A DNA stretch of 64,000 nt from IMG/VR virus record IMGVR_UViG_2675903278_000002. One strand, written 5' to 3'. The position numbers and the translations under genes were made by a program. Positions 19,880-34,413 of this stretch are shown here, one piece after another. Positions within the stretch are counted from its first letter, which is position 1; each line of letters starts with the position of its first letter. The notes below the pieces were generated by a model. That model saw only the letters and a program-made list of their open reading frames with translations. It did no database searches and was not told the DNA's origin. The stretch is from a virus (lineage: Duplodnaviria > Heunggongvirae > Uroviricota > Caudoviricetes).

Positions 19880-20146
19880 ATGTTGCATAGAGTTTTATGG
19901 AAAAGCGTTATTGTCGGCGCGATACTGGCTATATCTGGGTGTGCAATGGTGCAATACAACGACGGTGAAAAGGTAAGCATACAGTCAGATGGTTGGTATG
20001 GCCTGGATAGCCTGCAAAAAACCGCAGATAAAGCCTGTCAGCAATATGGGAAGTCTAAAGCAGTATATCAGCATAGCGCGAACGCTAACCCTAATCTTGC
20101 GCCCGGTTCGGGTGTTCAGAATACCATCTGGAAATGTGAGCCTTAA
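19880..20146 (+). CDS. Small lipoprotein
   Basis: Signal peptide with lipobox [12 protein letters not shown]. 88 aa from ATG 19880. Confidence 0.6.
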
Positions 20147-20148
20147 AT

Positions 20149-20400
20149 ATGAGCGACTGGAATATTGCAGCTAAAAGTCAGGAAGAACGGGATAAGGTTA
20201 ACGTTGATCTGGCTGCCAGCGGTGTGGCGTACAAAGAGCGATTGAACATACCTGTCATAGCTGAACAGGTAGCCCGCGAGCAACCAGAGAACCTGCGCAC
20301 CTATTTCATGGAACGGTTACGGCACTACCGGCAGTTAAGCCTCCAGTTGCCAAAAGGAAGCCATCCGGTGTATCAGAACGAGGATGCACCAAGAAAATAA
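20149..20400 (+). CDS. Hypothetical protein
   Basis: 83-aa ORF starting 2 nt after the upstream stop. Confidence 0.5.
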
Positions 20401-20407
20401 CGGCAAG

Positions 20408-20776
20408 ATGGGGAAGACATTAAACATGCTTAACTATCACGACAACACGCGTTCTATGCAGACAATCCGCACCAATACAGCGGTGGTCGATAGCTTTCCT
20501 GTACATACTCAAGGCCGTGAAGATACCGTGGAAGTGCGACGCATGTTGTGTCGCCGGTCACCAGGCCACCAGCACTTCATCGTAACGTTTAAAAGCGATG
20601 TAGAGCGCGCCGAGAAAATCTCTAACTCCACATCTCTGGTTAGTCCGTTGGCGGAGGTTATTGTGCGCAACAATAAGGCGCGCTTTGTCCTTGAGGAGCA
20701 TCATTCTGATTTTAATGAAAAAATTGAGTCAAGCATTTTGCAATATATGAATGGCAAGTTCACGCCACCAATGTGA
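20408..20776 (+). CDS. Hypothetical protein
   Basis: The start is uncertain (20384, 20408 or 20426). Confidence 0.4.
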   Translation: MGKTLNMLNYHDNTRSMQTIRTNTAVVDSFPVHTQGREDTVEVRRMLCRRSPGHQHFIVTFKSDVERAEKISNSTSLVSPLAEVIVRNNKARFVLEEHHSDFNEKIESSILQYMNGKFTPPM

Positions 20777-20837
20777 TTAGCCCCCAGCGTGGCGCGCCTG
20801 CAAACCCCGCTTTCACAAACTATGCCTTTTCAATGTA

Positions 20838-20857
20838 TACTGTATGAATAAACAGTA
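20838..20857. promoter_or_regulatory. LexA (SOS) box
   Basis: TACTGTATGAATAAACAGTA matches CTGT-N8-ACAG and overlaps a TATACT -10-like hexamer. Confidence 0.85.
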
Positions 20858-20875
20858 TCATTGAGGTAAAACGCT

Positions 20876-21265
20876 ATGGGCTTCCCTTCTCCTGCGGCGG
20901 ATTATGCAGAGAGCCGTATTTCTCTTGATCAGCAACTAATCAGACATCCTTCAGCGACCTACTTCATGCGGGCAGCTGATAGTCATCATCGTGAGGGAAT
21001 ATTACAGGGTGCATTGCTGGTGGTCGATTCCTCACTTACCCCGGTTGATGGTTCTCTGCTTGTATGCGCTCTGGATGGGGAATATCGCGTAAAAAGATAC
21101 CGGAAGTACCCACGTCAGCATCTGGAGGATTTAAGAACCGGTAAGAAGGAAGCATTGCCAAAGGATGACGATGGATGCACGGGCAGCAATGCCGTGTTTG
21201 GTGTGATCACTCACATTATCAACGACGCAAGAAGTGGCGAGTTTGATGATTGTCCCGTGATGTAG
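20876..21265 (+). CDS. umuD: UmuD'-like protein (pre-truncated UmuD homologue, P1 HumD-like)
   Basis: Begins MGFPSPAADY..., which matches E. coli UmuD from its Cys24/Gly25 cleavage site onward. HPSATYF is conserved, and the Ser (ADS) and Lys (VKR) positions are retained. Confidence 0.85.
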   Translation: MGFPSPAADYAESRISLDQQLIRHPSATYFMRAADSHHREGILQGALLVVDSSLTPVDGSLLVCALDGEYRVKRYRKYPRQHLEDLRTGKKEALPKDDDGCTGSNAVFGVITHIINDARSGEFDDCPVM

Positions 21266-21276
21266 GAGAACTGATT

Positions 21277-21301
21277 AGGCGGTGCATTGCACCGCCTTTT
21301 T
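21277..21301 (+). terminator. Rho-independent terminator
   Basis: GGCGGTGC-att-GCACCGCC followed by TTTTT. It ends 1 nt before the mrp stop codon. Confidence 0.8.
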
Positions 21302-21302
21302 A

Positions 21303-22403
21303 TCACACTGCGCGGAATGCGATTTCGCCAGGTATTACTTCACCTTGCCAATACATTTGGGCAGCAACGCGATCTGCGAGGTCACGATAAATAGCCGTAA
21401 ATTCGCTATCTGGACGACTAATAACGGTTGGTGTTCCGTTATCCAGATCTTCACGAAGAGAGATATGAAGTGGCATTTGGCCTAACAACTGCGTGTTGTA
21501 TTTCTCGGCCAGTTTCTGTGCGCCACCGGTGCCAAAAATTGGCTCGTGATGACCGCAGTTACTGCAAATATGCACACTCATGTTTTCGACGATACCCAGT
21601 ACCGGCACTTCGACTTTTTCGAACATCACAATGCCTTTCTTCGCATCGATCAGCGCGATGTCTTGCGGCGTAGTTACCACAACCGCACCAGTTACAGGAA
21701 TGTTCTGCGCCAGCGTCAACTGAATATCACCAGTGCCCGGCGGCATATCGAGAACGAGATAGTCCAGATCAGGCCATAGAGTTTCCTGCAACATCTGCAT
21801 CAGCGCCTTGCTGGCCATCGGTCCACGCCACACCATTGCATTGTCGTCGGTGACCAGATAACCAATAGAGTTGGTTGCCAGGCCATGAGACATGATAGGT
21901 GCCATGTGAGTACCGTCCGGTGAGGTTGGACGTTGGTTTTCCGCGCCCAGCATGGTTGGAATTGATGGACCATAGATATCGGCATCCAAAATACCAACTT
22001 TCGCACCTTCAGCAGCCAACGCCAGTGCCAGATTTACCGCCGTGGAGGATTTACCTACGCCGCCCTTGCCTGAGCTGACGGCGATAATGTTCTTAACGCC
22101 ATTAATGCCTGGTTGGTTTTTGACGCGCTTAAGCGTGGCAATGTTGTACGACAGCTTCCAGTCAATAGCCTTTGCGCCAGTGATACGGAGCAGATCACCA
22201 CTACATTGCTCTTTCAGGTCTTCAAAAGGCTTATTCCACACGAAAGGCATGATTAGTTCGACATGCAGTGTGTCATCCATCAACGCAACATGGTGTAACG
22301 CTTTAAGCGTAGTCAGGTTGTGTTTCAGGGTTGGGTGCTGAAAATTAGCCAGCGTACCGGCTACCATTGCTCTCAGGGCATCCGGCGATTTGGACTCGCT
22401 CAT
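21303..22403 (-). CDS. mrp: Fe-S cluster carrier ATPase Mrp/ApbC (host-type)
   Basis: 366 aa. Nearly collinear and identical to E. coli Mrp as I recall it (AVSSGKGGVGKSS, CSNCGHHEPIFG). Confidence 0.95.
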   Translation of the reverse strand: MSESKSPDALRAMVAGTLANFQHPTLKHNLTTLKALHHVALMDDTLHVELIMPFVWNKPFEDLKEQCSGDLLRITGAKAIDWKLSYNIATLKRVKNQPGINGVKNIIAVSSGKGGVGKSSTAVNLALALAAEGAKVGILDADIYGPSIPTMLGAENQRPTSPDGTHMAPIMSHGLATNSIGYLVTDDNAMVWRGPMASKALMQMLQETLWPDLDYLVLDMPPGTGDIQLTLAQNIPVTGAVVVTTPQDIALIDAKKGIVMFEKVEVPVLGIVENMSVHICSNCGHHEPIFGTGGAQKLAEKYNTQLLGQMPLHISLREDLDNGTPTVISRPDSEFTAIYRDLADRVAAQMYWQGEVIPGEIAFRAV

Positions 22404-22560
22404 CCCGTCTCCTTTATTTTAATTTGCGCAATTGTCGCCTTGTAGTGTACTCCAGCTACGACATTTAATCATTTATGAGAAATGCTGTTATCACATGGCA
22501 GACATAAGGCCATTTTGTTACTATCAAGCCCCTTTTCACTACAAAGAAGTAATGCCTACT

Positions 22561-24594
22561 ATGACCCAAGTCGCGAAGAAAATTCTGGTGACGTGCGCGC
22601 TGCCGTACGCTAACGGCTCAATCCACCTCGGCCATATGCTGGAGCACATCCAGGCTGATGTCTGGGTTCGTTACCAGCGAATGCGCGGCCACGAGGTTAA
22701 TTTCATCTGTGCCGACGATGCCCACGGTACGCCGATCATGCTGAAAGCACAGCAGCTTGGTATCACACCGGAGCAGATGATTGGCGAAATGAGTCAGGAA
22801 CACCAGACTGATTTCGCAGGCTTTAACATCAGCTATGACAACTATCACTCGACGCACAGCGAAGAGAACCGTCAGTTGTCTGAGCTTATCTATACTCGCC
22901 TGAAAGAGAACGGTTTTATTAAAAACCGCACTATCTCTCAGTTGTACGACCCGGAAAAAGGCATGTTCCTGCCGGATCGTTTTGTAAAAGGCACCTGCCC
23001 GAAATGTAAAGCGCCAGATCAATACGGCGATAACTGTGAAGTCTGCGGCGCAACATATAGCCCGACTGAATTGATCGAGCCGAAATCGGTGGTTTCTGGC
23101 GCTACCCCGGTAATGCGTGATTCCGAACACTTCTTCTTTGATCTGCCTTCTTTCAGCGAAATGTTGCAGGCATGGACCCGCAGCGGCGCGTTGCAGGAGC
23201 AGGTGGCGAACAAAATGCAGGAATGGTTTGAATCCGGCCTGCAACAGTGGGATATCTCCCGAGATGCGCCTTACTTCGGTTTTGAAATTCCGAACGCGCC
23301 GGGCAAATATTTCTACGTCTGGCTGGACGCGCCGATTGGCTACATGGGTTCCTTCAAGAATCTGTGCGACAAGCGCGGCGATACCACCAGCTTCGATGAA
23401 TACTGGAAGAAAGACTCCACCGCCGAGCTGTACCACTTCATCGGTAAAGATATTGTTTACTTCCACAGCCTGTTCTGGCCTGCCATGCTGGAAGGCAGCA
23501 ACTTCCGCAAGCCGACCAACCTGTTTGTTCACGGCTATGTGACGGTGAACGGCGCGAAGATGTCCAAGTCTCGCGGCACCTTTATTAAAGCCAGCACCTG
23601 GCTGAATCATTTTGACGCCGACAGCCTGCGTTACTACTACACTGCGAAACTCTCTTCGCGCATTGATGATATCGATCTCAACCTGGAGGATTTCGTTCAG
23701 CGCGTGAATGCCGATATCGTGAACAAAGTGGTTAACCTGGCCTCCCGTAATGCAGGCTTTATCAACAAGCGTTTTGACGGCGTGCTGGCAAGCGAACTGG
23801 CTGACCCGCAACTGTACAAAACCTTTACTGATGCCGCTGAAGTGATTGGCGAAGCATGGGAAAGCCGCGAATTTGGTAAAGCTATCCGTGAAATCATGGC
23901 ATTGGCTGACCTGGCTAACCGCTATGTCGATGAACAGGCTCCGTGGGTGGTGGCGAAGCAGGAAGGACGCGATGCCGATCTGCAGGCGATTTGCTCTATG
24001 GGCATTAACCTGTTCCGCGTGCTGATGACGTACCTGAAGCCGGTACTGCCGAAACTGACTGAACGTGCAGAAGCATTCCTGAATACAGAACTGACCTGGG
24101 ATGGTATCCAGCAACCGCTGCTGGGCCATAAAGTAAATCCGTTCAAGGCACTGTATAACCGCATCGATATGAAGCAGGTTGAAGCACTGGTGGAAGCATC
24201 CAAAGAAGAAGTGAAAGCCACAGCCGCACCGGTAACTGGCCCACTGGCTGACGACCCGATTCAGGAAACTATCACCTTTGACGACTTCGCCAAAGTTGAC
24301 CTGCGCGTGGCGCTGATTGAAAACGCAGAGTTTGTAGAAGGTTCTGACAAACTGCTTCGCCTGACGCTGGATCTCGGTGGTGAAAAGCGTAATGTCTTCT
24401 CAGGCATCCGTTCCGCTTATCCAGATCCACAGGCACTGATTGGTCGTCACACCATTATGGTGGCTAACCTGGCACCACGTAAAATGCGCTTCGGTATCTC
24501 TGAAGGCATGGTGATGGCTGCTGGCCCCGGCGGGAAAGATATCTTCCTGTTAAGCCCGGATGCTGGTGCTAAACCTGGCCACCAGGTTAAGTAA
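22561..24594 (+). CDS. metG: Methionyl-tRNA synthetase (host-type, full length)
   Basis: 677 aa from ATG 22561 ([25 protein letters not shown]..., KMSKS). Only scattered substitutions relative to E. coli K-12 MetG as I recall it. The track ORF start at 22432 is upstream read-in. Confidence 0.97.
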
Positions 24595-24613
24595 TTAAAC
24601 AACCTCTCTTCGC

Positions 24614-24641
24614 AATGCCCGGCAACACGCCGGGCATTTTC
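24614..24641 (+). terminator. Rho-independent terminator of metG
   Basis: ATGCCCGGC-aacac-GCCGGGCAT followed by TTTT. Confidence 0.85.
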
Positions 24642-24677
24642 ATATAGACACAATCCCTTCTGATTTACACAGTACCT

Positions 24678-24692
24678 AAAACAATTTGTTTT
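24678..24692. promoter_or_regulatory. Box A palindrome copy
   Basis: AAAACAATTTGTTTT. The extended context AACAATTTGTTTTCTGCCTT is shared with the copy at 29301. Confidence 0.6.
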
Positions 24693-24727
24693 CTGCCTTT
24701 TGTTGATGGAGATAATAAACCACATAA

Positions 24728-24743
24728 GAAAACAACTTGTTTT
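24728..24743. promoter_or_regulatory. Box A palindrome copy
   Basis: GAAAACAACTTGTTTT, 12 nt upstream of ATG 24756. Confidence 0.6.
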
Positions 24744-24755
24744 GGAGTGGTTGAA

Positions 24756-25055
24756 ATGTTGAACATTACCCAAGCCTACCAGGTGGCATTGATCAGCTCA
24801 TCTCATACATCAGAGGAAGATGCTCGCCGATTCATGATCGCAAGCAATGAGCTGGATTGGGTTTCACAAATTGAGTACGGTTGCATTGTCCACGCCGGGT
24901 TACAGGACGATGACTGGAAAGATGAGTTGCGTCGATATGGTATATCCGAGGGCGCGATTGCGAACATTCAGAAAGTACTTGATGTAGGCTTTGACTCTGT
25001 ACATTTTGATTGTGGTGCACCGGTCGTTGAAGGGCTAGAGTGCTGGCAATGGTAA
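24756..25055 (+). CDS. Hypothetical protein
   Basis: ATG 24756 has GGAG 8 nt upstream. 99 aa. Confidence 0.5.
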   Translation: MLNITQAYQVALISSSHTSEEDARRFMIASNELDWVSQIEYGCIVHAGLQDDDWKDELRRYGISEGAIANIQKVLDVGFDSVHFDCGAPVVEGLECWQW

Positions 25056-25091
25056 TCCGGCAATCGCTTCATACTAGACAACGGAGAATTT

Positions 25092-25277
25092 ATGCTTAAA
25101 GAAGACTCATATCTACTAAAGGCGCTTGAAATGCGTGGCGTTGAACCTACAGTGAAAAACGCTCACGATATCTACCTTCAGTTTTCACCGGAGCTGAAAC
25201 GGTTCATAAATCAATACGGGGTTAATGACTCAAGTGTTAAAGCAATGATAGATGATGAATTAGACCATCTCATCTAA
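25092..25277 (+). CDS. Small hypothetical protein
   Basis: 61 aa. SD GGAGA upstream. Confidence 0.45.
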   Translation: MLKEDSYLLKALEMRGVEPTVKNAHDIYLQFSPELKRFINQYGVNDSSVKAMIDDELDHLI

Positions 25278-25429
25278 TCGTTTCCTATGATAATGGTTTT
25301 CACTTTGAGATTGTTATTTTTCATAGCTAAAGCTGATGTTTGTGGAAGGTGGATTGATAAACGGATGCGTATTTAGGTTATACAAGTGAGAAAATTGATA
25401 ATATATAAACGCGATTTTTATGTGATGGA

Positions 25430-25999
25430 ATGGATGTGATGGAAACCCAGAACCAACAAACAAAACCTCTGAATAACATTTATGCGTGGATTCTAGCGTT
25501 CATGCCTTTCTTCTTTGGAGTATCGCCGGAAGAGTATACCAATTACGCTATTATAATTGGGGGTGTAACTACCATCGGTTTGTTAGTAGCTGACAGAATG
25601 GCTCTATCGGAGTCTGGCTGTGAACCACCTTCAATTCTATGGGGGGTATTCCTCCTGCCTGTCTATCTCTGGAAGCGCGCGACTATTACAAAAGGCAGCA
25701 GAGTGCCATTTATCATAATCGTTGCGTCGCTGGCTTGGATTATCTTCATCGGCATCCCACACAAGGACGAGGTTGCTCTTGAAGAAGCAGCCTGCCCTCT
25801 CGTGACAACTATTCTGAAAGAGAATAACGGTTCGACTGCACCAAAATGTATGAAGGTGACAATAGAGGACAAGGTGACGGATAAGTTCTATAGAGCAACG
25901 GCTACACTAGACAATGGTAATGACATTAACATTACTCTGGAACTTACCGGCGACAGGAACTTCTACGTCCGTGTTCCAAATGTTTATCTGAACAACTAA
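25430..25999 (+). CDS. Membrane protein (about 4 TM segments plus soluble C-terminal domain)
   Basis: Hydrophobic segments IYAWILAFMPFFF, AIIIGGVTTIGLLV, ILWGVFLLPVYLW and FIIIVASLAWIIFIGI. Lies in AT-rich surroundings. Confidence 0.5.
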   Translation: MDVMETQNQQTKPLNNIYAWILAFMPFFFGVSPEEYTNYAIIIGGVTTIGLLVADRMALSESGCEPPSILWGVFLLPVYLWKRATITKGSRVPFIIIVASLAWIIFIGIPHKDEVALEEAACPLVTTILKENNGSTAPKCMKVTIEDKVTDKFYRATATLDNGNDINITLELTGDRNFYVRVPNVYLNN

Positions 26000-26099
26000 C
26001 GGTTGCAACTTATTGATAATGGCGGTCACAATTTGATTCTTTTCTATAAGAACCCGTTGATCGCCACTACTCCCCTCCCATACCAGCAATCACATCATT

Positions 26100-26870
26100 A
26101 AATATCAATAGGTTATGGTTGTTTATACAAATAAGAAAACAACTAAATAACAGATCAACGAAACGTCAACGCTTTCACCCGATTTGGTCTAAAAAATTGA
26201 CGTTTTCACACATCACTTCTTATACCCGTAACTCTACGCAGCAGACATCGCCACAGCGTCCAATTTTCACCACAGACGACCCAACACACTACCAACAAAA
26301 ACACACGCTCAAAATCGCTCCCGTTGCGTTACACAACCATATAAACAACTTATTTTCAGGCATAACAAAACAACTAAATAACACACATGCCATTTCCAAA
26401 AACAACCAACCTCTTTATGGCAGGCTACCGAAAAGACCCACCTCTTCTCCCCAGGCTACCGGACAACCAACCTAACTTTCACAGGCAATCCGAAAACATT
26501 CATACGCGCGATACCCACGACACGCCATTACCCAAACAGCGAAGAAACACCAGAATCACTGAACCCCCAACGAAGCCTGTAACCGCAAGGCTTCTCTCAA
26601 TCCCAAAAGACACGAAACAGAACAATCACGGGAAACGCCATTACCCAACACACGAATAACTACAAAAGCCCTTCACGCACTCCAGACAAACAACTCAAAC
26701 ACAATAACGAAAGGAATCGCCCACCTGCCATTACTCCATACACGGAGAAGAACAATCACCAAAACGACGAGAACACCCCATAGAAGAACCACCGCAAAAC
26801 GAACGAAACCACATACACCGACAGAGAGAACAACACACCCAATTCACCAACAGAATTAGTCGCCGTATAG
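26100..26870 (+). other. A+C-skewed, G/T-poor non-coding tract
   Basis: By hand count, about 100 G in 780 nt, and 70-80% A+C in the lines I counted. Track ORFs here translate to low-complexity T/P/Q/N/H sequence. Confidence 0.6.
26421..26510 (+). repeat. Three tandem ~30-bp repeats (CAGGCTACCGnAnAAnCCnACCT...)
   Basis: Units start at 26421, 26452 and 26482. A related triplet lies at 30416-30500. Confidence 0.6.
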
Positions 26871-26981
26871 AACGTTCTGGAAGGAGTGAGTGTTAACGTC
26901 CATAGAGAGGTTGAGACAGATAAAACACGAATAAAACACAACATGTATAGCGAAGAAGCCAGGTATGTATAAGTGGGGAGA

Positions 26982-27007
26982 GAAGGAGGGGTGTCGCCTC
27001 CTTTTTC
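26982..27007 (+). terminator. Rho-independent terminator closing the A+C-rich tract
   Basis: AAGGAGG-ggtgtcg-CCTCCTT followed by TTT. Confidence 0.6.
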
Positions 27008-27069
27008 GTATTTATTCAACTCCTGATTTTACCCCCCGTAACACCCCTACGGTCAGCCTTCGGTCCATA

Positions 27070-27205
27070 CAGGGAAAAGGCTGCATCCCGCTACAGAAAC
27101 GGCTGGGTTGCCTTCGGGGAACGGCTGGAGGTTTTCAGGGAAACGGTCGAGTTGCCTGTGTGGATTTCGGGAAAAGGCTCGATGCCGGTTCAGGAACGGT
27201 GGCGT
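27070..27205 (+). repeat. Iteron-like array: six direct repeats (G/C)GGAAA(A/C)GGCT
   Basis: The GG anchor of each repeat falls at 27079, 27101, 27123, 27145, 27176 and 27198, giving spacings of 22, 22, 22, 31 and 22 bp. Confidence 0.7.
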
Positions 27206-27342
27206 ACCGGTATAGCGTGAGGGAGAGTTGCGGCTGTCCACCTGTAATGTGCGGGAAGAAGAGAGGCGCTCACGTGCAGGCGAACTTACTTACCGCTGGA
27301 TTCCCTCTGAATGCCCAGCTACAGCGTAATTGTGCCAGACAG

Positions 27343-27489
27343 TCAGCGGGTCACAATCGATTTCAGTAGGTTTTCGGGGAGAAGAAAATTCTGCCCACCA
27401 GCCCTGCGGCGCGCGTAGAGCAGAATATCGTAAATACTGGTTCCGTGTCGTTCCCGGATACTCACTACCCAGCCTGGCTTTCCCGACAT
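27343..27489 (-). CDS. Possible 48-aa basic protein
   Basis: Internal ATG has AAAGGA 4 nt upstream and gives MSGKPGWVVSIRERHGTSIYDILLYARRRAGGQ... It is divergent from the 27583 gene. The track start at 27546 lies inside Box A. Confidence 0.3.
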   Translation of the reverse strand: MSGKPGWVVSIRERHGTSIYDILLYARRRAGGQNFLLPENLLKSIVTR

Positions 27490-27536
27490 AAAATCCTTTT
27501 CCGCCTTTGTCTTATTGCGATAATAACACCAACAAG

Positions 27537-27551
27537 TAAACAACATGTTTA
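27537..27551. promoter_or_regulatory. Box A palindrome copy
   Basis: TAAACAACATGTTTA, preceded by GATAATAACACCAACAAG (a shared -10-like context). Confidence 0.6.
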
Positions 27552-27582
27552 GACGTTATATAAACGAAGTGAGGATGAAGAG

Positions 27583-27801
27583 ATGATTAAGATGCCTGTG
27601 ACGGTTGAGGTGTGGGGCGTGGATTCCCTGGCTGAGTGTCTGGATGCAGTGGGGCCGGAGTTGTACCGCAAGTTGTGGTCGTTCGTCCCGGCAGAAGGGG
27701 AATCGCCCAAAGGGAAGGATATCTGGCACCTGCTGAGTGAAGATGAAAAGCGGGAGCTGGTGGACGCGGTACACAGCGAGTTCCCGGGCGACGAAGATTA
27801 A
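27583..27801 (+). CDS. Small acidic hypothetical protein (cassette 1)
   Basis: 72 aa. GAGGA lies 7 nt upstream. Confidence 0.5.
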   Translation: MIKMPVTVEVWGVDSLAECLDAVGPELYRKLWSFVPAEGESPKGKDIWHLLSEDEKRELVDAVHSEFPGDED

Positions 27802-27806
27802 GAGTG

Positions 27807-27830
27807 AGGCCACCAGCACGGTGGCTTTTG
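27807..27830 (+). terminator. Rho-independent terminator
   Basis: GCCACC-agcac-GGTGGC followed by TTTT. Confidence 0.7.
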
Positions 27831-27912
27831 TCGCTATTAACCTCCGGGCAGCGCAGCACCGTAACGATATACTTTGTGGCCGTTTTCTTACTGGTATTGT
27901 TTACGCAATTCA

Positions 27913-27927
27913 GAAAACAACATGTTT
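27913..27927. promoter_or_regulatory. Box A palindrome copy
   Basis: GAAAACAACATGTTT, 12 nt upstream of ATG 27940. The ~65-bp upstream context is duplicated at 28352-28411. Confidence 0.6.
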
Positions 27928-27939
27928 AAGGATTGCGTT

Positions 27940-28269
27940 ATGTTTGCAAATATCGACATCAACCAAATCAAGAAAATGACTCAAAAAGAGTTTGACCAGT
28001 TTTATGAGTTAGAAGGTTGGTCTTCCACTCTGATCAATTCGCGGTGGGTGCTTGAGCTGATGACTCGTGATGACGCACCTGCTTTGATGATTTGCGACAT
28101 GGGTGAAGATGCTGACTTTATGGATATGAGCGAATTTTGTGTGGACACATACAACCGCAGCCAGAAGTACTACTTCACATGCGATAGCGAAAATGACGTG
28201 ATTTCTAAGGTCTATCTTCACCTCGTCCAGCATTGGGACGTTCAGGAGTTTCTTGAAGTATTCGAGTAA
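27940..28269 (+). CDS. Small acidic hypothetical protein (cassette 2)
   Basis: ATG 27940 has AAGGA 7 nt upstream. 109 aa. Confidence 0.5.
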   Translation: MFANIDINQIKKMTQKEFDQFYELEGWSSTLINSRWVLELMTRDDAPALMICDMGEDADFMDMSEFCVDTYNRSQKYYFTCDSENDVISKVYLHLVQHWDVQEFLEVFE

Positions 28270-28278
28270 CCCCAACCA

Positions 28279-28304
28279 AAGCCAGCATTGCTGGCTTAAT
28301 TTCT
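28279..28304 (+). terminator. Hairpin terminator (weak U-tract)
   Basis: AAGCCAGC-att-GCTGGCTT followed by aatttctc. Confidence 0.5.
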
Positions 28305-28396
28305 CTATAGCCGCAGGGAAGAACCTGCATATCGCTCATGCACCTGATCAATATGCTTTGTAGCCGTTTTCTTACTGGTATTATTTACGCCATTGA

Positions 28397-28411
28397 GAAA
28401 ACAAGTTGTTT
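28397..28411. promoter_or_regulatory. Box A palindrome copy
   Basis: GAAAACAAGTTGTTT, 11 nt upstream of ATG 28423. Confidence 0.6.
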
Positions 28412-28422
28412 ACGGAGTTGTG

Positions 28423-28734
28423 ATGAAAAAATCATTGGTTCTTGGTCTGGACAAAGACCAGAAGAGAAAAGAGAAGCCTGCGCTGGTTGCTCAATTAACT
28501 TTGCTGGACATCGTTGCCAATGGAACCTCTATTCGTCTGTTCCGTGAAACAGCGGTGTCTTTCGATAAAAACACCTTTACTCGTTATGTAATGAATGTTC
28601 GTCGCCAGCGTGGAAAAGGCTGGGTGGCATTTCAAAGAATGTGGCCGGAACATCAGCTCGAACTGGCTTTGATGGAAGTTAACCGCGTGGCCCAGCAAGA
28701 GATTCAGAGAGCATCAGTGATGGCAATAGCCTGA
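28423..28734 (+). CDS. Small basic hypothetical protein (cassette 3)
   Basis: ATG 28423 has GGAG 5 nt upstream. 103 aa. Confidence 0.5.
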   Translation: MKKSLVLGLDKDQKRKEKPALVAQLTLLDIVANGTSIRLFRETAVSFDKNTFTRYVMNVRRQRGKGWVAFQRMWPEHQLELALMEVNRVAQQEIQRASVMAIA

Positions 28735-28768
28735 TAATGTGCAAGTGGTAATTAGTCGACAGTACGAC

Positions 28769-28797
28769 AGCCCCGCCATCCTTACGGGGCTTTTTTG
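28769..28797 (+). terminator. Rho-independent terminator
   Basis: GCCCCG...CGGGGC followed by TTTTTT. Confidence 0.85.
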
Positions 28798-28801
28798 TAT
28801 T

Positions 28802-28817
28802 GTAAGTACATACTTAT
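28802..28817. promoter_or_regulatory. Box B palindrome copy
   Basis: GTAAGTACATACTTAT. This is the only cassette in the array that carries Box B instead of Box A. Confidence 0.55.
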
Positions 28818-28860
28818 GATCATAGAATATAAAAATAACCAAAACACTACGGAGAGTGAA

Positions 28861-29256
28861 ATGACCGTTAAACGCGAAAAACTGACAGTTGATGTTTACT
28901 ATGCCTCTGAAACCGCCGAAGGTAAGAATGTGGCAAAAATCACCGTTGTTACGTACAACACCGAAACTGGTGCCGAAGTCCAGGCCAGTACGATCGTGCG
29001 TAAAGGTGATGCCTCCGACGGCGAGTACGCGACTCAATACCAGTCCATTCTCGATGCAACTGACCCGCTGCTGCTGAAAATCGAGAACTACTTCCGCCAG
29101 GTTGATGAAGAGGTGTTTGAAACCATGATGAATATGGTTAACACCGTATTCGCCTCCAACCTGAATACCAACACTACCTGGATTGGTCAGTACGGCCTGC
29201 GCATTACCTCTGGCATTCCTGCCGACACCTTAATCCCTGAAAGCGTATTCGCTTAA
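28861..29256 (+). CDS. Hypothetical protein (cassette 4)
   Basis: ATG 28861 has GGAG 6 nt upstream. 131 aa. Confidence 0.5.
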   Translation: MTVKREKLTVDVYYASETAEGKNVAKITVVTYNTETGAEVQASTIVRKGDASDGEYATQYQSILDATDPLLLKIENYFRQVDEEVFETMMNMVNTVFASNLNTNTTWIGQYGLRITSGIPADTLIPESVFA

Positions 29257-29264
29257 TCCTCTTT

Positions 29265-29292
29265 AAATGGCGCGTAAACCGCGCCATTTTCT
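29265..29292 (+). terminator. Rho-independent terminator
   Basis: AATGGCGCG-taaac-CGCGCCATT followed by TTTC. Confidence 0.8.
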
Positions 29293-29300
29293 TATGCCCG

Positions 29301-29315
29301 ATAACAATTTGTTTT
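29301..29315. promoter_or_regulatory. Box A palindrome copy
   Basis: ATAACAATTTGTTTT. Confidence 0.55.
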
Positions 29316-29373
29316 CTGCCTTATCTGATTTGTGAAAATGATTTCACTGAAGCAACTTAATAAGGAAACCATC

Positions 29374-29748
29374 ATGGGACTTGATATCTATATCGAGACA
29401 CAGCCTAAAAACGATCTGAATAACGAGGCATCCAGAAAGCAGGTTGCTTACTTCCGTAAGTTCAATGCGCTCGTTGGGTGGATGGAGCGCAACGTAGGTG
29501 AAGTCGAAAATTGTGAGCTTTTAGAATTAACGATGAATGACATTTGTTTTCTGAAGGCTCATTTGATGCACATAAACGAAAGTAATTGCGAAGAGTACTT
29601 GCCTACCCGGGAAGGTTTTTTCTTCGGCAGTCAGGAGTACGATGAAGGTTACTGGCATGATGTGGGGCAGTTGAAAGAGCTTGTGGAAGATCTGATTAAG
29701 AACCACGACTTTCACAATAACAGACTGACCTTCTGCGCCTGGTGGTAA
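29374..29748 (+). CDS. Hypothetical protein (cassette 5)
   Basis: ATG 29374 has AAGGA 7 nt upstream. Begins MGLDIYIETQ... 124 aa. Confidence 0.5.
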   Translation: MGLDIYIETQPKNDLNNEASRKQVAYFRKFNALVGWMERNVGEVENCELLELTMNDICFLKAHLMHINESNCEEYLPTREGFFFGSQEYDEGYWHDVGQLKELVEDLIKNHDFHNNRLTFCAWW

Positions 29749-29750
29749 AT

Positions 29751-29894
29751 ATGGGCGATTTCAAGAAACGCCTGAAGGAAAGAGCCGAGATGGTCAGAAA
29801 GCAAAACGCCTCTTCTGTCATCAGATACGCAAGGCAGTTTAGTCGCAACAACAAATCAGTTGAGGAAAAGATCCTTAGCGTAATCGGTCGATAA
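29751..29894 (+). CDS. 47-aa basic microprotein (not in ORF track)
   Basis: ATG lies 2 nt after the upstream stop. I translated it by hand as MGDFKKRLKERAEMVRKQNASSVIRYARQFSRNNKSVEEKILSVIGR. Confidence 0.4.
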   Translation: MGDFKKRLKERAEMVRKQNASSVIRYARQFSRNNKSVEEKILSVIGR

Positions 29895-29901
29895 TTATTA
29901 A

Positions 29902-29921
29902 GGCCACCAGCATTGGTGGTC
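29902..29921 (+). terminator. Conserved GGCCACCA/TGGTGG hairpin (no U-tract)
   Basis: The context ATTAAGGCCACCAgcatTGGTGGtCTTAAATGAC is nearly identical to that at 30367-30400. Confidence 0.45.
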
Positions 29922-30049
29922 TTAAATGACTTTTAATAACCGAAGGTTAGTTTGAAACCTGGCTATCAACTTCCAGAACCTTTCTTGTGTATTCAGCCTG
30001 TATTAACTTCTTTTATGCCTTATCTACACTGCGATAATTACACCAACAA

Positions 30050-30064
30050 GAAAACAACATGTTT
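30050..30064. promoter_or_regulatory. Box A palindrome copy
   Basis: GAAAACAACATGTTT, preceded by GATAATTACACCAACAAG. Confidence 0.6.
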
Positions 30065-30083
30065 ACGCAGTGAGGATATGCTC

Positions 30084-30365
30084 ATGACTGATTTCACCAT
30101 TACCCCTAAAGCACAAAATGTATTTCTTGAATCATGGCTGGACTTGCCGGAAACAGAACAGCAAGAAATGGATCATGTGGATTATGACGAGCAGGTAAGC
30201 ACGCGATTCTTCCACTTTGAGGGATGCGTTTACGACATTGCTGACTTCATGCGAGATGACCGCTTCCCTGAATGGCACGCCAGTTATCCACTAAACGCCT
30301 TTGCCATGCTGATGATCCGTGTGGATGATTCAGGGGATACCATCGACATCGGTCTGCTCCACTAA
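30084..30365 (+). CDS. Small acidic hypothetical protein (cassette 6)
   Basis: ATG 30084 has GAGGA 7 nt upstream. 93 aa. Confidence 0.5.
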   Translation: MTDFTITPKAQNVFLESWLDLPETEQQEMDHVDYDEQVSTRFFHFEGCVYDIADFMRDDRFPEWHASYPLNAFAMLMIRVDDSGDTIDIGLLH

Positions 30366-30370
30366 AGATT

Positions 30371-30394
30371 AAGGCCACCAATGCTGGTGGCCTT
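30371..30394 (+). terminator. Conserved hairpin (perfect 10-bp stem, no U-tract)
   Basis: AAGGCCACCA-atgc-TGGTGGCCTT. Confidence 0.45.
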
Positions 30395-30415
30395 AAATGA
30401 CCATCCTGTTTCCCG

Positions 30416-30500
30416 CAGGCTAAAAACACCAACCTCTTACCTCCAGGCAACCGACAAACCCACCTGTTCCCGTCCGGCTACCGCAACTTTCCACTTTGAC
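30416..30500 (+). repeat. Three tandem ~29-bp repeats related to those at 26421-26510
   Basis: CAGGCTAAAAACACCAACCT.., CAGGCAACCGACAAACCCACCT.., CCGGCTACCGCAACTTTCCAC. Units start at 30416, 30444 and 30474. Confidence 0.55.
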
Positions 30501-30534
30501 GCCTTATTCGTACAACGATAATTAACACCAACAA

Positions 30535-30549
30535 GAAAACAATTTGTTA
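30535..30549. promoter_or_regulatory. Box A palindrome copy
   Basis: GAAAACAATTTGTTA, preceded by TTGACG-n15-GATAAT (sigma70-like). Confidence 0.6.
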
Positions 30550-30569
30550 TTTACGATAAGGAATTAATC

Positions 30570-31052
30570 ATGAATTTTATCGCTACTGTAAACGCACCCG
30601 CACATGGCAATATCGCTGTAACGTTCTCTGACATTGAAAAACGAGTACTTGGTGCATGGCGCGACAATGAGACGGTAGAACTGTCAGCACAAGAAAAATG
30701 CATTATTGCACGCGACATCATTGGCAATCGTCGTTACTCGCGGGTATTTGAGAAAGCGTATGTGGTAAATTCTGGGTTCGGAACGTTCGTCTTTCCGGTG
30801 CGCTCCGGGCGATTCTGCCAGTCCAAGCTGATTGAGTTCGCTACGCAGATTTCTGTCTGGATTAAAACTCAATCGTCGTTCAAATTTTCCGACGATGAAG
30901 CAGTATCGCAGGGGATGCGGATCGCCAACAATGCGATTAAATGCAAAAACATTACGTATACCGCTGGCGTTGATACATGGAAACTGTTTTGCGCTAACTT
31001 TATGCTGAATGTATACGCAAGCAACCGCATCCACATCCTTGATGGCGTGTAA
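30570..31052 (+). CDS. Hypothetical protein (cassette 7)
   Basis: 160 aa. SD AAGGA upstream. Confidence 0.5.
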   Translation: MNFIATVNAPAHGNIAVTFSDIEKRVLGAWRDNETVELSAQEKCIIARDIIGNRRYSRVFEKAYVVNSGFGTFVFPVRSGRFCQSKLIEFATQISVWIKTQSSFKFSDDEAVSQGMRIANNAIKCKNITYTAGVDTWKLFCANFMLNVYASNRIHILDGV

Positions 31053-31058
31053 CTGAGA

Positions 31059-31084
31059 AGAGGGCCAGAAACGGCCCTTTCTCT
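31059..31084 (+). terminator. Rho-independent terminator
   Basis: AGGGCC-agaaac-GGCCCT followed by TTCTC. The loop contains the iteron core CAGAAACGGC. Confidence 0.6.
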
Positions 31085-31099
31085 ATAGCCACCAGCTGC

Positions 31100-31180
31100 C
31101 GCAGGGAAATTTTCAGAAACGGCGAGGAACGTATTCATAAGCCGACGGGAAACGGCCAGGATTTTTTCGGGAAACGGCTG
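31100..31180 (+). repeat. Second iteron-like set (GGGAAACGGC family)
   Basis: GCAGGGAAAT, CAGAAACGGCG, CGGGAAACGGCC and CGGGAAACGGCTG. The last two are 22 bp apart. Confidence 0.55.
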
Positions 31181-31279
31181 CATTCGCCTTTATGTAGAAA
31201 AAAACATCGGGAAGCTGGTGGAATCCAACCAGCGGTTGTCGGACAGGCGAGCGGGGAAAATTATGATGACTTTCGTCGC

Positions 31280-31590
31280 CTGAGACATCCAGATTTCTTT
31301 CGTAGCATAATCACATACGTGATTAAGTGGTGTGATTATGTGAAAAATCACGCGCACATAATACGCGAGCGGATACGGAACAAAACAAAATGCCGATCCG
31401 CGCCGACAAATAAACGCGGATCACATAGCAAGAATAAAAGCCAATGATTAGCCATACGTTATAGCGCAATATAACGCATTTTAAGCGCGTTAATGTGCTA
31501 AGTAATGGGTATGTACTGGTAAGGATATAAAAGCGCGTCTATGGCGTTATTTTGGCGCTTATTTTTATGTTGTTGGAGTGAGTTAAAGAC
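31280..31590. other. ORF-free AT-rich region with nested inverted repeats
   Basis: CATAATCACA (31306) pairs with TGTGATTATG (31331), enclosing AATCAC-atac-GTGATT. GATCCGCG (31395) pairs with CGCGGATC (31415). Confidence 0.45.
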
Positions 31591-31593
31591 AAT

Positions 31594-31664
31594 AAAAAAC
31601 GCGCCATCATTGGCGCGCTATGGTGGGAGTATTGGAAACGAAAAAAGCGCCCATAGTGGGCGCT
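31594..31664 (-). terminator. Tandem rho-independent terminators for the minus-strand module
   Basis: Read on the minus strand: AGCGCCCA-cta-TGGGCGCT+TTTTTT, then CGCGCCA-atga-TGGCGCG+TTTTTT. Confidence 0.8.
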
Positions 31665-31669
31665 CGATT

Positions 31670-31900
31670 TTATTTGTGTAAACTGATTTTAAATCCCATT
31701 TCTACAAACGCTTTTAACATTAAAAATATATCAGCGTCGTTGATTCCAATATCCGAACGCTCAATATCATTTAATAAATCAATTTTACGCGTTGTTTCAT
31801 CGATAAACTCGACTGAGCGCCCAGCGTAACCAGCGATCCCAGCGATGCGATTAACAAAATATTCATTGCGCACGTTAACGCCAGCGATAAGAACAAACAT
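31670..31900 (-). CDS. Hypothetical protein
   Basis: 76-aa ORF, AT-rich. Confidence 0.45.
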   Translation of the reverse strand: MFVLIAGVNVRNEYFVNRIAGIAGYAGRSVEFIDETTRKIDLLNDIERSDIGINDADIFLMLKAFVEMGFKISLHK

Positions 31901-31921
31901 GATAAAGCTCCTTAAAAAAAA

Positions 31922-32125
31922 TTAAATAGAATTTTGAAGTTTTCCGATTAATGCGCTTAAACGTAAGTATTCACGTTTGCGCTTGCAATCTCGCTTGCTG
32001 TTGAGCAAATCAGAAAACGTAAAATTTAATTGGTCGCGTTGCGCGATCAAATCATCGATTAATTCCAGTTTATAAGCGCGATACTTTGCGCGATATTCCG
32101 CGCGGATCTTGTCATAGCTGACCAT
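31922..32125 (-). CDS. Hypothetical coiled-coil protein
   Basis: Start moved to ATG 32125, which has AAGGAG 8 nt upstream. The track start at 32170 would read through a hairpin. Confidence 0.45.
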   Translation of the reverse strand: MVSYDKIRAEYRAKYRAYKLELIDDLIAQRDQLNFTFSDLLNSKRDCKRKREYLRLSALIGKLQNSI

Positions 32126-32173
32126 TTTTAAAGCTCCTTTAAAGCGCCCACTATGGGCGCTTGATTCCATTAA

Positions 32174-32824
32174 TTACGCTTTGAAAGCATCAGCTAAATA
32201 ATTGTAGAAATCATTTTTAATGAAGCGATATTGCTGAGTACCAGCTTTCGCGCTCCCAGCTCCTTTGACTTTTTCAACAAGTCCAAGACGTTCGCAAAGA
32301 TTGATCAACTGGTTGGCTTGAGTATAGCCAGCGTCCAATTTAATTTCGCACGCTTTTTTCGCTTCATTCATTAAATCGAAAACAGCGCCATTGGTGAACG
32401 TGTCGATCTCGTCGTTAATCATATCGATTAATGCGAATACACGAGATCCGGACATATCAGCGACGGAATAAACACACTTTCCAGCTTTAATGGATTTAAC
32501 CAGATAAACCAGTTTTTCCAGAGAATAACTATTAGTCATTGCATCACGGAAAAATACTTCTGGCGCTTGTTTGCTTGCTTTGATCGCATAGTAGAAAACA
32601 GAGCACAATTTTTCGTCTTCTACAGCGTTTACAACGTTGTTGATGAAGTAAGCAAGTTTAGTGGTTGCAGCTTGCATATTTGCTTTGTCTGCTTTGGTGT
32701 GCGTGCCATTTTTATAATGTTCGTTATATGTTTGAGTTGCCAGATCTGCTTTTTCGCGCAGTTCATCGGATACAATGGAAGCAGCTTCAATGATGGATTT
32801 TTTAGAAATGATAATGTTAGCCAT
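32174..32824 (-). CDS. Hypothetical protein, 216 aa
   Basis: SD AAGGAAAAA upstream. No motif recognised. Confidence 0.55.
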   Translation of the reverse strand: MANIIISKKSIIEAASIVSDELREKADLATQTYNEHYKNGTHTKADKANMQAATTKLAYFINNVVNAVEDEKLCSVFYYAIKASKQAPEVFFRDAMTNSYSLEKLVYLVKSIKAGKCVYSVADMSGSRVFALIDMINDEIDTFTNGAVFDLMNEAKKACEIKLDAGYTQANQLINLCERLGLVEKVKGAGSAKAGTQQYRFIKNDFYNYLADAFKA

Positions 32825-32889
32825 GATAATTTTTCCTTATGTAAATTTAAAATTTATTGTCGTTAGCGTCTTCGCTTTCGACGAGTTCA

Positions 32890-32917
32890 ATTATCGATAT
32901 GCGAAAAAAGATTGCAA
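32890..32917 (-). promoter_or_regulatory. Sigma70-like promoter for the 32824 gene
   Basis: On the minus strand: TTGCAA-n16-GATAAT. Confidence 0.5.
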
Positions 32918-33065
32918 GTGTTTTTTTTAAATTTTTTGCAGGGATGAAAGTCCTAGAAATAAAAGCGAGATCGTCGAAGGTGTTCCCTAAATAAATAATT
33001 GATTGCGGCTTTAGACCTTATATATATTTAGGTTATTTGATTTGTAGATATAAAGAAGTGATGTG

Positions 33066-33097
33066 AAAAATAATAACCGGACTTAGCCGGTTATTAA
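33066..33097 (-). terminator. Rho-independent terminator
   Basis: On the minus strand: TAATAACCGG-ctaagt-CCGGTTATTA followed by TTTTT. Confidence 0.8.
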
Positions 33098-33107
33098 CCT
33101 TATAGAT

Positions 33108-33416
33108 TTATTGAACAGACTCTACAGCCTTACGATTGGTGTCAAATAGCGCATCAACGAACTGTGCCGATGACTCGCTAGATTCGCAATCCAACATTGC
33201 CCGTTCTTCATTTGCCACTTTCTTACACAGTTCCACATTCTCACCTATCGCTTTTCCTGCTTTTACGGCTGCCGAAAATTGATACATGCAAACTGATACA
33301 TTCTGAGACGTTGAGCACACGTCATTCATCAGCGACTGAATGACAGGCTTATAGTCCATTGCATTTGCCGCAACTGAGCAAAGTAAAAATAATGGTGGTA
33401 ACAATATCGATTTCAT
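33108..33416 (-). CDS. Secreted Cys-containing small protein
   Basis: Signal peptide MKSILLPPLFLLCSVAANA. 102 aa. Confidence 0.55.
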   Translation of the reverse strand: MKSILLPPLFLLCSVAANAMDYKPVIQSLMNDVCSTSQNVSVCMYQFSAAVKAGKAIGENVELCKKVANEERAMLDCESSESSAQFVDALFDTNRKAVESVQ

Positions 33417-33419
33417 AAC

Positions 33420-33944: not shown

Positions 33945-33948
33945 ATCA

Positions 33949-34413
33949 TCACAGAGTTGTTGGCAGAATGTCGATGTCACCAGAATTGCTGGTAAACACC
34001 CTGAACGCTTTTGTGTCTCCATTCTTCAGAGTCGTTTCTCGCTCTTGACGAGCGGGGTTTAGAGCACATAAACCTGCACCTTCAAGAGATGCACCCACAA
34101 TTAATTCTCCGGCATTTAAATGGAAAGTCGCTTTTTCGCCTGTAGCCAGTTTTGCGACAGTTTCGCCGTTGATGAAAATGGAAGCATCACATCCAGCTCC
34201 TACAAAACCTGTGTCTCTCATTACCACCAACGTAGCTGGCGCTGCGCTTTGATACTTGAACACTTTGGCCTGCGGTGCTGGTTTGGCGTCATGGATTGAT
34301 ATTGGGTGTGATTGGCACGCGGCAAGCATCAACACTGGTAACGTTAGTAGAGGGAGAAGCGAGTATTTCATGATAGTTTTAGAACAGAAAGTGAACAGTA
34401 TGGGAGACTTCAT
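33949..34413 (-). CDS. Lipoprotein
   Basis: Lipobox LPVLMLAA-C. GGGAGA SD lies before ATG 34413. Confidence 0.6.
   Translation of the reverse strand: MKSPILFTFCSKTIMKYSLLPLLTLPVLMLAACQSHPISIHDAKPAPQAKVFKYQSAAPATLVVMRDTGFVGAGCDASIFINGETVAKLATGEKATFHLNAGELIVGASLEGAGLCALNPARQERETTLKNGDTKAFRVFTSNSGDIDILPTTL

Follow-up and report, generated by a model that had tools for sequence, protein, structure and literature searches.

The loading substrate of the termination factor Rho is long, untranslated RNA that is C-rich, G-poor, and naked (a C>G bubble with YC dimers). Systems that work in this way include the Rho utilization (rut) sites of lambda tR1 (rutA and rutB) and trp t', and the Rho-mediated polarity and silencing of acquired or prophage DNA. 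Here we describe a tract of about 700 nucleotides (nt), rich in A and C and poor in G and T, on the + strand of a 64,000-nt stretch of viral DNA (IMG/VR record IMGVR_UViG_2675903278_000002, Caudoviricetes), called the window below and used for all positions. Like the rut regions, the tract is untranslated, C-rich, G-poor, and poorly structured; as with Rho-dependent terminators, its predicted effect is limited to one orientation, and there is no hairpin-plus-U-tract where the RNA signal is lost. Like the targets of Rho silencing of acquired DNA, it belongs to a mobile element and borders on accessory genes. It differs from known Rho-dependent terminators in its size (~700-760 nt versus ~80-100 nt), in the retention of length and architecture across genera, and in the strong enrichment of specific repeats; its Rho dependence is predicted.

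Other described systems are similar in some respects. Sponge RNAs (CsrB, CsrC, and RsmZ for CsrA; CrcZ for Hfq/Crc) likewise carry many short motifs in one orientation within unstructured noncoding RNA, but the tract is not enriched in GGA or AANAANAA/ARN motifs, has no consensus promoter, does not accumulate RNA in lysogens, and has motifs of its own (GCCAUUAC and CAGGCUACCG) that are without a known reader. RARE, a short Rho-antagonizing C-rich element in the regulated mRNA leader of Salmonella mgtCBR, shows that an RNA can trap Rho instead of being terminated by it; for the tract, by contrast, neither trapping nor action in trans is indicated. The c4-icd-ant system of P1/P7, the CI RNA of P4, and the CA RNA of N15 share with the tract a phage-plasmid setting and an untranslated leader with repeats and premature (Rho-linked) termination, whereas the tract gives no c4-like match in Rfam and its candidate repeat/anti-repeat pairing is no better than that of shuffled sequences. 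The hairpin at 26982-27007 resembles intrinsic terminators in general; it is limited to the lineage of the window and a few others and closes the tract without explaining it.

We tentatively interpret the tract as an orientation-specific Rho-loading insulator that blocks transcription arriving from upstream genes. The tract is noncoding, strongly biased in composition, and unstructured as RNA; its composition is conserved, its presence in the family is nearly universal, and its RNA does not accumulate in lysogens. We infer Rho as the agent and insulation as the function under selection. An earlier note, made from the sequence alone, had proposed three roles, and an extreme Rho-loading or insulator region is the one that fits best, as judged from an untranslated, unstructured RNA with C/G of at least 2 and a drop in RNA signal; the other two, a protein-sponge RNA in its Hfq or CsrA form and a replication element of the plasmid, are not supported (see below), and a part in the lytic phase, as RNA or as an R-loop, keeps a small chance.

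The bias that the note had seen by eye, with a hand count of about 100 G in roughly 780 nt, is borne out by computation: 26100-26880 contains 39.3% A, 31.2% C, 12.9% G (~101 G in 781 nt), and 16.5% T, an A+C content of 70.5%. Sliding windows place the most biased 700 nt at 26156-26855, where A+C reaches 72.6% (C 33%, G 12%, T 15%; C/G ~2.7). This is 7.2 standard deviations (SD) above the mean of the window (49.9%, SD 3.1%), the next extreme being 59%. Within the tract, GC skew reaches -0.57 and AT skew +0.65. Every 78-nt segment across 26183-26560 and 26573-26770 (378 and 198 nt) has a C/G ratio of at least 2; neither strand of the 64 kb has longer runs of this kind, and these two occur in + strand RNA only. 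The density of YC dimers is 0.141 in the tract versus 0.098 in the window. The bias ends at 26856-26981, where G rises to 29%. Among 138 unrelated loci (1.04 Mb of phage and bacterial background), an amino/keto bias of at least 64% in any 700-nt segment was seen in two. The sole background locus above the bias of the tract, with 0.777 over 700 nt, comes from Candidatus Portiera aleyrodidarum (NC_018677.1; ~1620-2320 of our locus L172).

The best matches of the 1.1 kb around the tract are E. coli plasmids of ~100-115 kb, with identities of up to 99.6%. Escherichia phage Cyrano and related phages match this region at 94.6-97.3% and Salmonella phage SSU5 at 70%, and PLSDB holds 839 matching plasmids from at least six genera (Klebsiella, Escherichia, Enterobacter, Salmonella, Citrobacter, Cronobacter, and others), nearly all of them typed IncFIB and non-mobilizable. 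Together, the plasmid, phage, and PLSDB matches identify the window, on sequence grounds, as an SSU5/pHCM2-type phage-plasmid. Clinical Escherichia, Klebsiella, Enterobacter, and Salmonella often contain elements of this type, which carry resistance genes; to our knowledge, the regulation of these elements is almost unstudied. The best-match plasmid is annotated with phage structural genes and a replisome of its own (dnaE, a DnaB-like helicase, ligase, RNase HI, and a UvsW-like helicase), and its repA (65.6 kb) lies 26 kb from the tract (92.3 kb). Over the whole plasmid, the + strand tends to G>C, and the tract therefore opposes its background. Among complete E. coli genomes, the tract occurs in 243 (plasmid-borne in all, chromosomal in 0), the adjacent conserved genes in 242, and the terminase gene in 216. 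The tract is a core element of the SSU5-type family, present in essentially every member, and one of the few universally retained noncoding elements of the family; it is unannotated in the RefSeq records examined.

For the coding potential and conservation of the tract, 42 nonredundant copies (<97% identical) were aligned, and the spectral power of per-column variability at period 3 was compared with the median, five neighboring genes aligned likewise serving as controls. Three-base periodicity is absent from the tract across these relatives (0.1-4.5x the median power, versus 28-140x in the five genes), and the copies differ by many indels of 1 nt or of other lengths not divisible by three, which break any frame. 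The surrounding 1.6-kb gap (26000-27583) carries no PGAP annotation in any RefSeq copy examined; the only records with open reading frames (ORFs) or hypothetical proteins here are those of the phages Cyrano and SSU5 and a few GenBank plasmid entries. The tract is thus noncoding. No conserved coding frame emerged among the relatives, and the ORFs at 26119-26475 and 26387-26659 show no codon-level conservation, in line with the suspicion of the note that they are low-complexity artefacts.

The strand skew, in turn, persists in all 42 relatives, with A+C of 66-73% and G of 12-18%. The length is 755-761 nt in most relatives and ~700 nt in the E. coli subgroup to which the window belongs. Identity to the window is 57-71% among the representative relatives compared and about 65-70% across genera. 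Pairwise identity of the tract (0.64-0.71) lies above that of third codon positions in similarly diverged neighboring genes (0.39-0.53) and below that of their first plus second codon positions (0.78-0.85), and evolution is faster in the tract than in the terminase gene. Of the substitution events in the tract, 25% are A<->C changes, versus 15% in flanking noncoding DNA; for T->G changes, the shares are 13% versus 32%. This spectrum leans toward the retention of A and C and lends support to selection on composition, though only modest support because the alignment is imperfect. Composition itself is conserved, rather than sequence alone, and the tract is a clear-cut case of selection acting on the base composition of one strand and not on sequence.

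As RNA, the + strand of 26230-26860 has a minimum free energy (MFE) of -71 kcal/mol over 631 nt (~-0.11 per nt), compared with -161 for the complementary RNA; the z-score of the tract fold is -1.5 to -1.8, and the consensus fold is sparse. Three features of a rut region are found in the tract: it is untranslated, C exceeds G over at least 80 nt with frequent YC, and there is little structure.

Evidence on transcription comes from a re-analysis of RNA sequencing (RNA-seq) data for E. coli LF82 with the phage-plasmid Cyrano, whose tract is 96% identical (per-gene values of 10 lysogen samples; supplementary table of PMC9928086). CYRAN_102, a gene ending 3 nt before the homology begins, has log2 values of 5.6-9.2, and CYRAN_103, which corresponds to 26119-26475 of the window, has values of 2.32-4.27, the floor being 2.32; the signal falls 10-80-fold between the two, and an intrinsic terminator is absent between them. 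CYRAN_104 (26965-27369 of the window) remains at 2.6-4.7, and genes farther downstream that are preceded by the Box A palindrome reach up to 7.8. Because CYRAN_102 is high and CYRAN_103 is near the floor, the tract is essentially silent in lysogens, despite an expressed gene that runs straight into it. In the window, no + strand intrinsic terminator was found between 24594 and 26980 apart from a weak hairpin within an ORF at 25484, and no + strand promoter of sigma-70 consensus was found in the tract of the window, SSU5, or the Klebsiella copy. These results do not support the discrete ~0.9-kb transcript suggested earlier: a consensus promoter is absent, the closing terminator is lineage specific, and the tract is at the floor in 10/10 lysogen samples.

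The tract lies at the junction of variable accessory genes (metG, apbC, and small genes) and conserved small genes preceded by Box A; our account of the junction places the accessory genes all on the + strand, whereas our gene listing has apbC on the minus strand. In seven relatives (L002-L007 and L009), the stop codon of the upstream gene is 0-29 nt from the conserved block at 26010-26068. Since the upstream gene ends no more than 30 nt away in most relatives and no intrinsic terminator was found at this junction in the copies scanned (the window and SSU5), upstream transcripts would run straight into ~700 nt of tract RNA. This RNA would be untranslated, C-rich, G-poor, and almost without secondary structure; Rho would load on it and then chase and release RNA polymerase. 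The freed, unstructured 3' ends may be trimmed by exonucleases, possibly back to the conserved hairpin at 26020-26066, and in the lineage of the window the intrinsic terminator at 26982-27007 would act as a back-stop. What could be new here, if the interpretation is right, which we regard as possible, is an unusually long and architecturally conserved rut-like insulator. A true insulator would show how such elements accept arbitrary upstream accessory genes without disturbing a conserved regulatory module, and inhibition of Rho, by bicyclomycin or phage Psu-like proteins, would be predicted to de-repress that module.

Several points weigh against this interpretation. The case for Rho as the agent is indirect, the RNA-seq values for the CYRAN genes may not be strand-specific, and the low signal would fit equally well if another mechanism halted upstream transcripts at the conserved block (26010-26068). 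A rut site needs ~80 nt, which the fixed length of ~700 nt exceeds; the fixed length, the repeat positions, and a 60-nt near-invariant core suggest an additional or different function. The Rho model does not explain the GCCATTAC cores and the 31-nt units of the tract (Table 1), and the 31-nt family also precedes a promoter, at 30401-30483, a site for which + strand transcription is improbable in SSU5. In the Klebsiella copy L010, the nearest upstream annotated gene is on the opposite strand, so read-through from a neighbor is not universal. The sequence-specific repeats, GCCATTAC cores and 31-nt units alike, probably bind a further factor. Should these repeats have a binding factor of their own, or should the RNA influence Rho in trans, the tract would represent a new kind of phage regulatory RNA.

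Table 1. Features of the tract, its surroundings, and the upstream accessory genes (window positions)
Feature	Positions	Strand	Remarks
Conserved block right after the upstream stop codon (25997-25999)	26010-26068	+	Near-invariant in 42 relatives
Half Box A, copy 1 (ATAAGAAAACAACTAAATAACA)	26131-26152	+	AAGAAAACAAC half kept, TGTTT half lost; block conserved
Half Box A, copy 2	26362-26383	+	Identical to copy 1; exact 16-nt repeat at 26368-26383
Promoter-like block	26155-26226	+	Two TCAACG repeats (26155-26160, 26166-26171), TTGACG at 26197-26202, TTATAC at 26220-26225
Core A+C-rich, G/T-poor untranslated tract	26156-26855	+	Predicted rut-like Rho-loading zone
Box A palindrome	26343-26355	+	Degenerate in the window (AAACAACTTATTT), perfect in most relatives (AAACAAGTTGTTT)
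Three tandem 30-31-nt units (AAAAGACCCACCTCTTnnnnCCAGGCTACCG type)	26400-26491	+	Two with CAGGCTACCG, third degenerate (CAGGCAATCC)
Dispersed GCCATTAC-core repeats	26523-26760 (starts ~26524, ~26637, ~26727)	+	Repeat scan
Most conserved segment of the A/C domain (ATCGCCCACCTGCCATTACTCCATACACGGAGAAGAACAATCACCAAAACGACGAGAACA)	26716-26775	+	Nearly invariant in Escherichia, Salmonella, Enterobacter, and Klebsiella copies
G-rich return segment	26856-26981	+	~45-nt insertion in the lineage of the window
Intrinsic terminator, GAAGGAGG GGTGTCG CCTCCTTTTTC then GTATTTATT	26980/26982-27006/27007	+	Terminator scan
G-rich noncoding domain in the same 1.6-kb gap	27040-27215	+	Three repeats 44-53 nt apart (GGGAAAAGGC ... 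GGAAACGG) and two small hairpins
Box A-related positions	2319, 12541, 13270, 24679, 24730, 26343, 27538, 27915, 28399, 29302, 30052, 30537, 39654, 39679		
HumD/UmuD-like S24 peptidase	20876-21265		
apbC	21303-22403	minus	
metG (methionyl-tRNA synthetase)	22432-24594		

The conserved block that precedes the tract marks a sharp boundary, as the sequence to its left is wholly different between relatives. It contains TTGATA (TTGACA in relatives), TATAAG at 26045-26050, and an imperfect 8-bp inverted repeat, TGGCGGTCA (26020-26028) and TGATCGCCA (26058-26066). The resulting hairpin is not an intrinsic terminator because no T run follows it; the block may instead form a 3'-end-protecting hairpin for upstream transcripts or serve as a protein site. 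An RfaH ops element was considered and set aside: GGCGGTCAC in this block agrees with the ops consensus in its first six bases and no further.

The Box A palindrome (AAACAACnTGTTT, AAACAAnnTGTTT) has 43 copies in the window at up to 2 mismatches, versus 9.9 expected, and most of them precede a + strand start codon by 14-40 nt and follow a GATAAT element by ~13 nt. The degenerate half copies noticed earlier at the start of the tract proved to be two identical sequences, and the altered copy at 26343 is a one-mismatch version of AAACAACnTGTTT. CTCTTATAC, tried as another recurrent promoter element, was rejected, with 6 matches versus 8.6 expected. In the promoter-like block, TTGACG-N17-TTATAC, both hexamers are invariant in the 42 relatives, the spacer is variable, and indels are absent; the element falls below the sigma-70 consensus.

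The tandem 31-nt units have a spacing of three helical turns and vary from 2 to 4 copies among relatives; of the IMG/VR relatives, L044 and L047 have one more and L052 one fewer. Matches to the unit in the window exceed chance (4 versus 0.05 expected) and include a recurrence at 30401-30483. This second array (CCTCTTnnnnCCAGGCTACCG type) lies in a 160-nt spacer with C/G of at least 2, flanked on one side by a bidirectional terminator (30369-30396) and on the other by the Box A promoter that serves the gene at 30570-31052; it is conserved in SSU5 and in the Klebsiella-type copy, and in SSU5 it adjoins a divergent repressor-like gene. Since the divergent gene makes + strand transcription unlikely at the SSU5 array, the arrangement suggests that the 31-nt units, at least as a sub-element, may be read at the DNA level. 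Alternatively, because the 30401-30483 site is also a run of C/G of at least 2, it suggests that A/C-rich spacers with 31-nt units are a general inter-module device. Long-range pairing of the C-rich 31-nt units with the G-rich 3' segment was examined and rejected, the duplex energy being equal to or worse than that with shuffled G-rich segments in all lineages.

The repeat scan recovered the internal repeats reported earlier at ~26524, ~26637, and ~26726. SSU5-type relatives have six GCCATTAC cores at fixed positions (405, 547, 637, 682, 723, and 775). About 93 nt of the core-repeat region are missing from L014. CCATTAC is enriched over dinucleotide shuffles in seven lineages (z of +8 to +26), and a hidden Markov model (HMM) of the core built from relatives matches the window at the three GCCATTAC sites only. 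The positions of the cores are conserved, but a 10.5-bp helical phasing is absent.

On the 3' side, the terminator stem has 10 pairs (4 of them G-C), followed by a T run. The hairpin is kept in the consensus fold, and a + strand terminator is not called at the homologous place in SSU5 or the Klebsiella copy. The closing terminator described earlier is present at 26982-27007 but appears not to be a conserved feature, being confined to the lineage of the window and a few others. In the G-rich domain that follows (27040-27215), the hairpin loops vary between lineages as UUCG, UACG, and UGCG (UNCG type), and one stem shows a double change from CGGU/ACCG to CGGG/CCCG; its MFE as a structured RNA is no better than that of shuffled sequences (z of +0.97).

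Two alternatives to the Rho-loading insulator deserve most attention, each of which we consider unlikely. According to the first, the tract is a discrete long noncoding RNA that is made only in early infection or induction, starts at TTGACG-N17-TTATAC or at Box A, and acts in trans as a decoy or sponge; proposed targets are Rho (by RARE-like trapping), an FljA-family regulator, or a reader of GCCAUUAC and CCCACCUCUU..CAGGCUACCG units. The promoter-like block is indeed conserved in the pattern of a promoter, invariant in its two hexamers, variable in the spacer, and free of indels; a Box A operator, perfect in most relatives, is conserved inside the tract; the repeats are strongly enriched, in one orientation and at conserved positions; a terminator closes the unit in the lineage of the window; and silence in lysogens is what would be expected of a repressed lytic function. 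A sigma-70-consensus promoter is nevertheless absent in three lineages: read with a 17-nt spacer, the -10 element TTATAC has T instead of A at position 2, and read with an 18-nt spacer, TATACC has C instead of T at position 6. Conservation of the terminator is not seen in SSU5 or the Klebsiella copy, no Rfam family matches, and the window offers no outstanding antisense target for such an RNA; in the search with the conserved core there was no outlier, a 10-nt match at 46499 being at chance level. An Hfq (or CsrA) sponge, raised earlier on account of A/C-rich runs, is disfavored by the motif counts in seven lineages, where GGA, A.GGA, AANAANAA, and (ARN)x4 give z values of -1.0 to +1.6 over dinucleotide shuffles and (ARN)x3 gives at most +2.0. 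The Rfam search (E of at most 1 over 20000-34000) returned no family in the tract and two chance matches elsewhere.

Favorable to the noncoding RNA, too, is a gene 7 kb away that encodes an FljA-family protein (PF03614, E 2.5e-84). The gene, at 33420-34022 on the minus strand, also gives a weak Hfq-like match, and its Cyrano counterpart, CYRAN_114, is expressed in lysogens (log2 4.2-8.1). FljA has been reported to be a post-transcriptional repressor (PMC2652032). Its relative encoded here may read Box A, as DNA or as RNA. A motif similar to Box A, CAAGTTGT, may be present in the Salmonella fliC leader.

According to the second alternative, which we also give a small chance, the tract acts as DNA, either as an array of protein sites (cis-regulatory, decoy, or handcuffing) or as an R-loop-primed lytic origin with the G-rich iteron-like repeats at 27072-27199 as the initiator site. 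The three-turn spacing and variable copy number of the 31-nt units speak for it, as do their recurrence just upstream of the Box A promoter at 30401-30483, a site that in SSU5 lies beside a divergent repressor-like gene, and the three repeats, 44-53 nt apart, that flank the tract. Also encoded by the element are a ligase, RNase HI, DnaE, and two helicases (UvsW-like and DnaB-like), a toolkit of the kind used by the R-loop origins of T4 and ColE1. An array of sites, on the other hand, does not require a one-strand bias between the sites, and the GCCATTAC copies lack helical phasing. For an R-loop, C-rich RNA on a G-rich template is the unfavored polarity, and no minus strand promoter was found. 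As for a plasmid form of the replication element entertained in the earlier note, repA with the plasmid origin is 26 kb away, and a conserved DnaA box, a GATC cluster, and an AT-rich unwinding element were not seen on reading the sequence. The tract was rejected as the plasmid origin on the distance to repA and on the cumulative skew, whose switch point (minimum) lies not at the tract but at a divergent region near plasmid coordinate 1259. Nor does it look like an iteron origin, the GCCATTAC cores being unphased and only the 31-nt units having three-turn spacing.

A further reading, which strikes us as quite improbable, is that SSU5-type phage-plasmids carry a dedicated ~0.7-kb module of structure-free, C-rich RNA that manipulates Rho itself, by titration or trapping or through an R-loop. 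In the trapping version, bulk RNA made at lytic onset would titrate or trap Rho, resulting in genome-wide antitermination by RNA; in the R-loop version, Rho would be overwhelmed, the naked transcript would form an R-loop, and the RNase HI and UvsW-like helicase of the element itself would make a lytic primer from it. Specificity would come from the GCCAUUAC and 31-nt repeats.

Rather doubtful, too, is the proposal that the tract is a functionless spacer between modules, expanded and now decaying, which arose from duplicated leader or spacer units and inherited its composition from A/C-rich leaders. Box A leaders are A/C-rich as well (e.g., ACACCAACAAGAAAACAAC), the 31-nt units also occur in a shorter A/C-rich spacer (30401-30483), the lineage of the window has degenerate forms of Box A and of the -10-like element beside it, and the rate of evolution above that of the terminase gene fits decay. 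It is hard to reconcile with these origins that composition, length (757-761 nt), and repeat positions are kept across genera at 65-70% identity, that identity exceeds that of third codon positions, and that essentially every family member has the tract. The idea, formed by eye, that the GCCATTAC cores are decayed Box A promoter modules was rejected, since nhmmer searches in both directions gave no support for homology between the two.

There is next to no chance that the tract is a gene for a low-complexity protein rich in Thr, Pro, Asn, Gln, His, and Lys, which is the annotation given in Cyrano (CYRAN_103): + strand ORFs of 118 and 90 amino acids exist, one of them annotated in OV696614, but period-3 conservation is absent, indels break the frames, start codons are not conserved, PGAP calls no gene in the RefSeq copies examined, and chance ORFs are likely because the composition is stop-poor.

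With regard to the distribution of the element, the protein family of a neighboring gene has 11 members only, all of them close, and no distant relatives were gained through it. In K. pneumoniae pC51_001 (NZ_CP042482.1), a 217-kb IncFIB/IncHI1B plasmid, the first ~730 nt of the region are present (3001-3735 of our locus L012), ~2 kb from psiA; the copy breaks off at what is apparently the end of an insertion sequence. A link to conjugative leading regions was rejected, the copy being merely truncated; it shows that fragments of SSU5-type elements are scattered among large Klebsiella plasmids.

Two other regions of the window are worth recording. Upstream, at 20876-24594, the phage-plasmid carries full-length host-type genes (Table 1), and in lysogens few genes are expressed as strongly as the homologue of the S24 peptidase in Cyrano (log2 up to 12.3). 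Downstream, a long + strand gene block and a minus strand block converge at 31350-31670, in a 1.1-kb ORF-free gap with at least five terminator-like hairpins on both strands and a sub-threshold Rfam match to Hrs1 at 31591-31657 (E 0.048).

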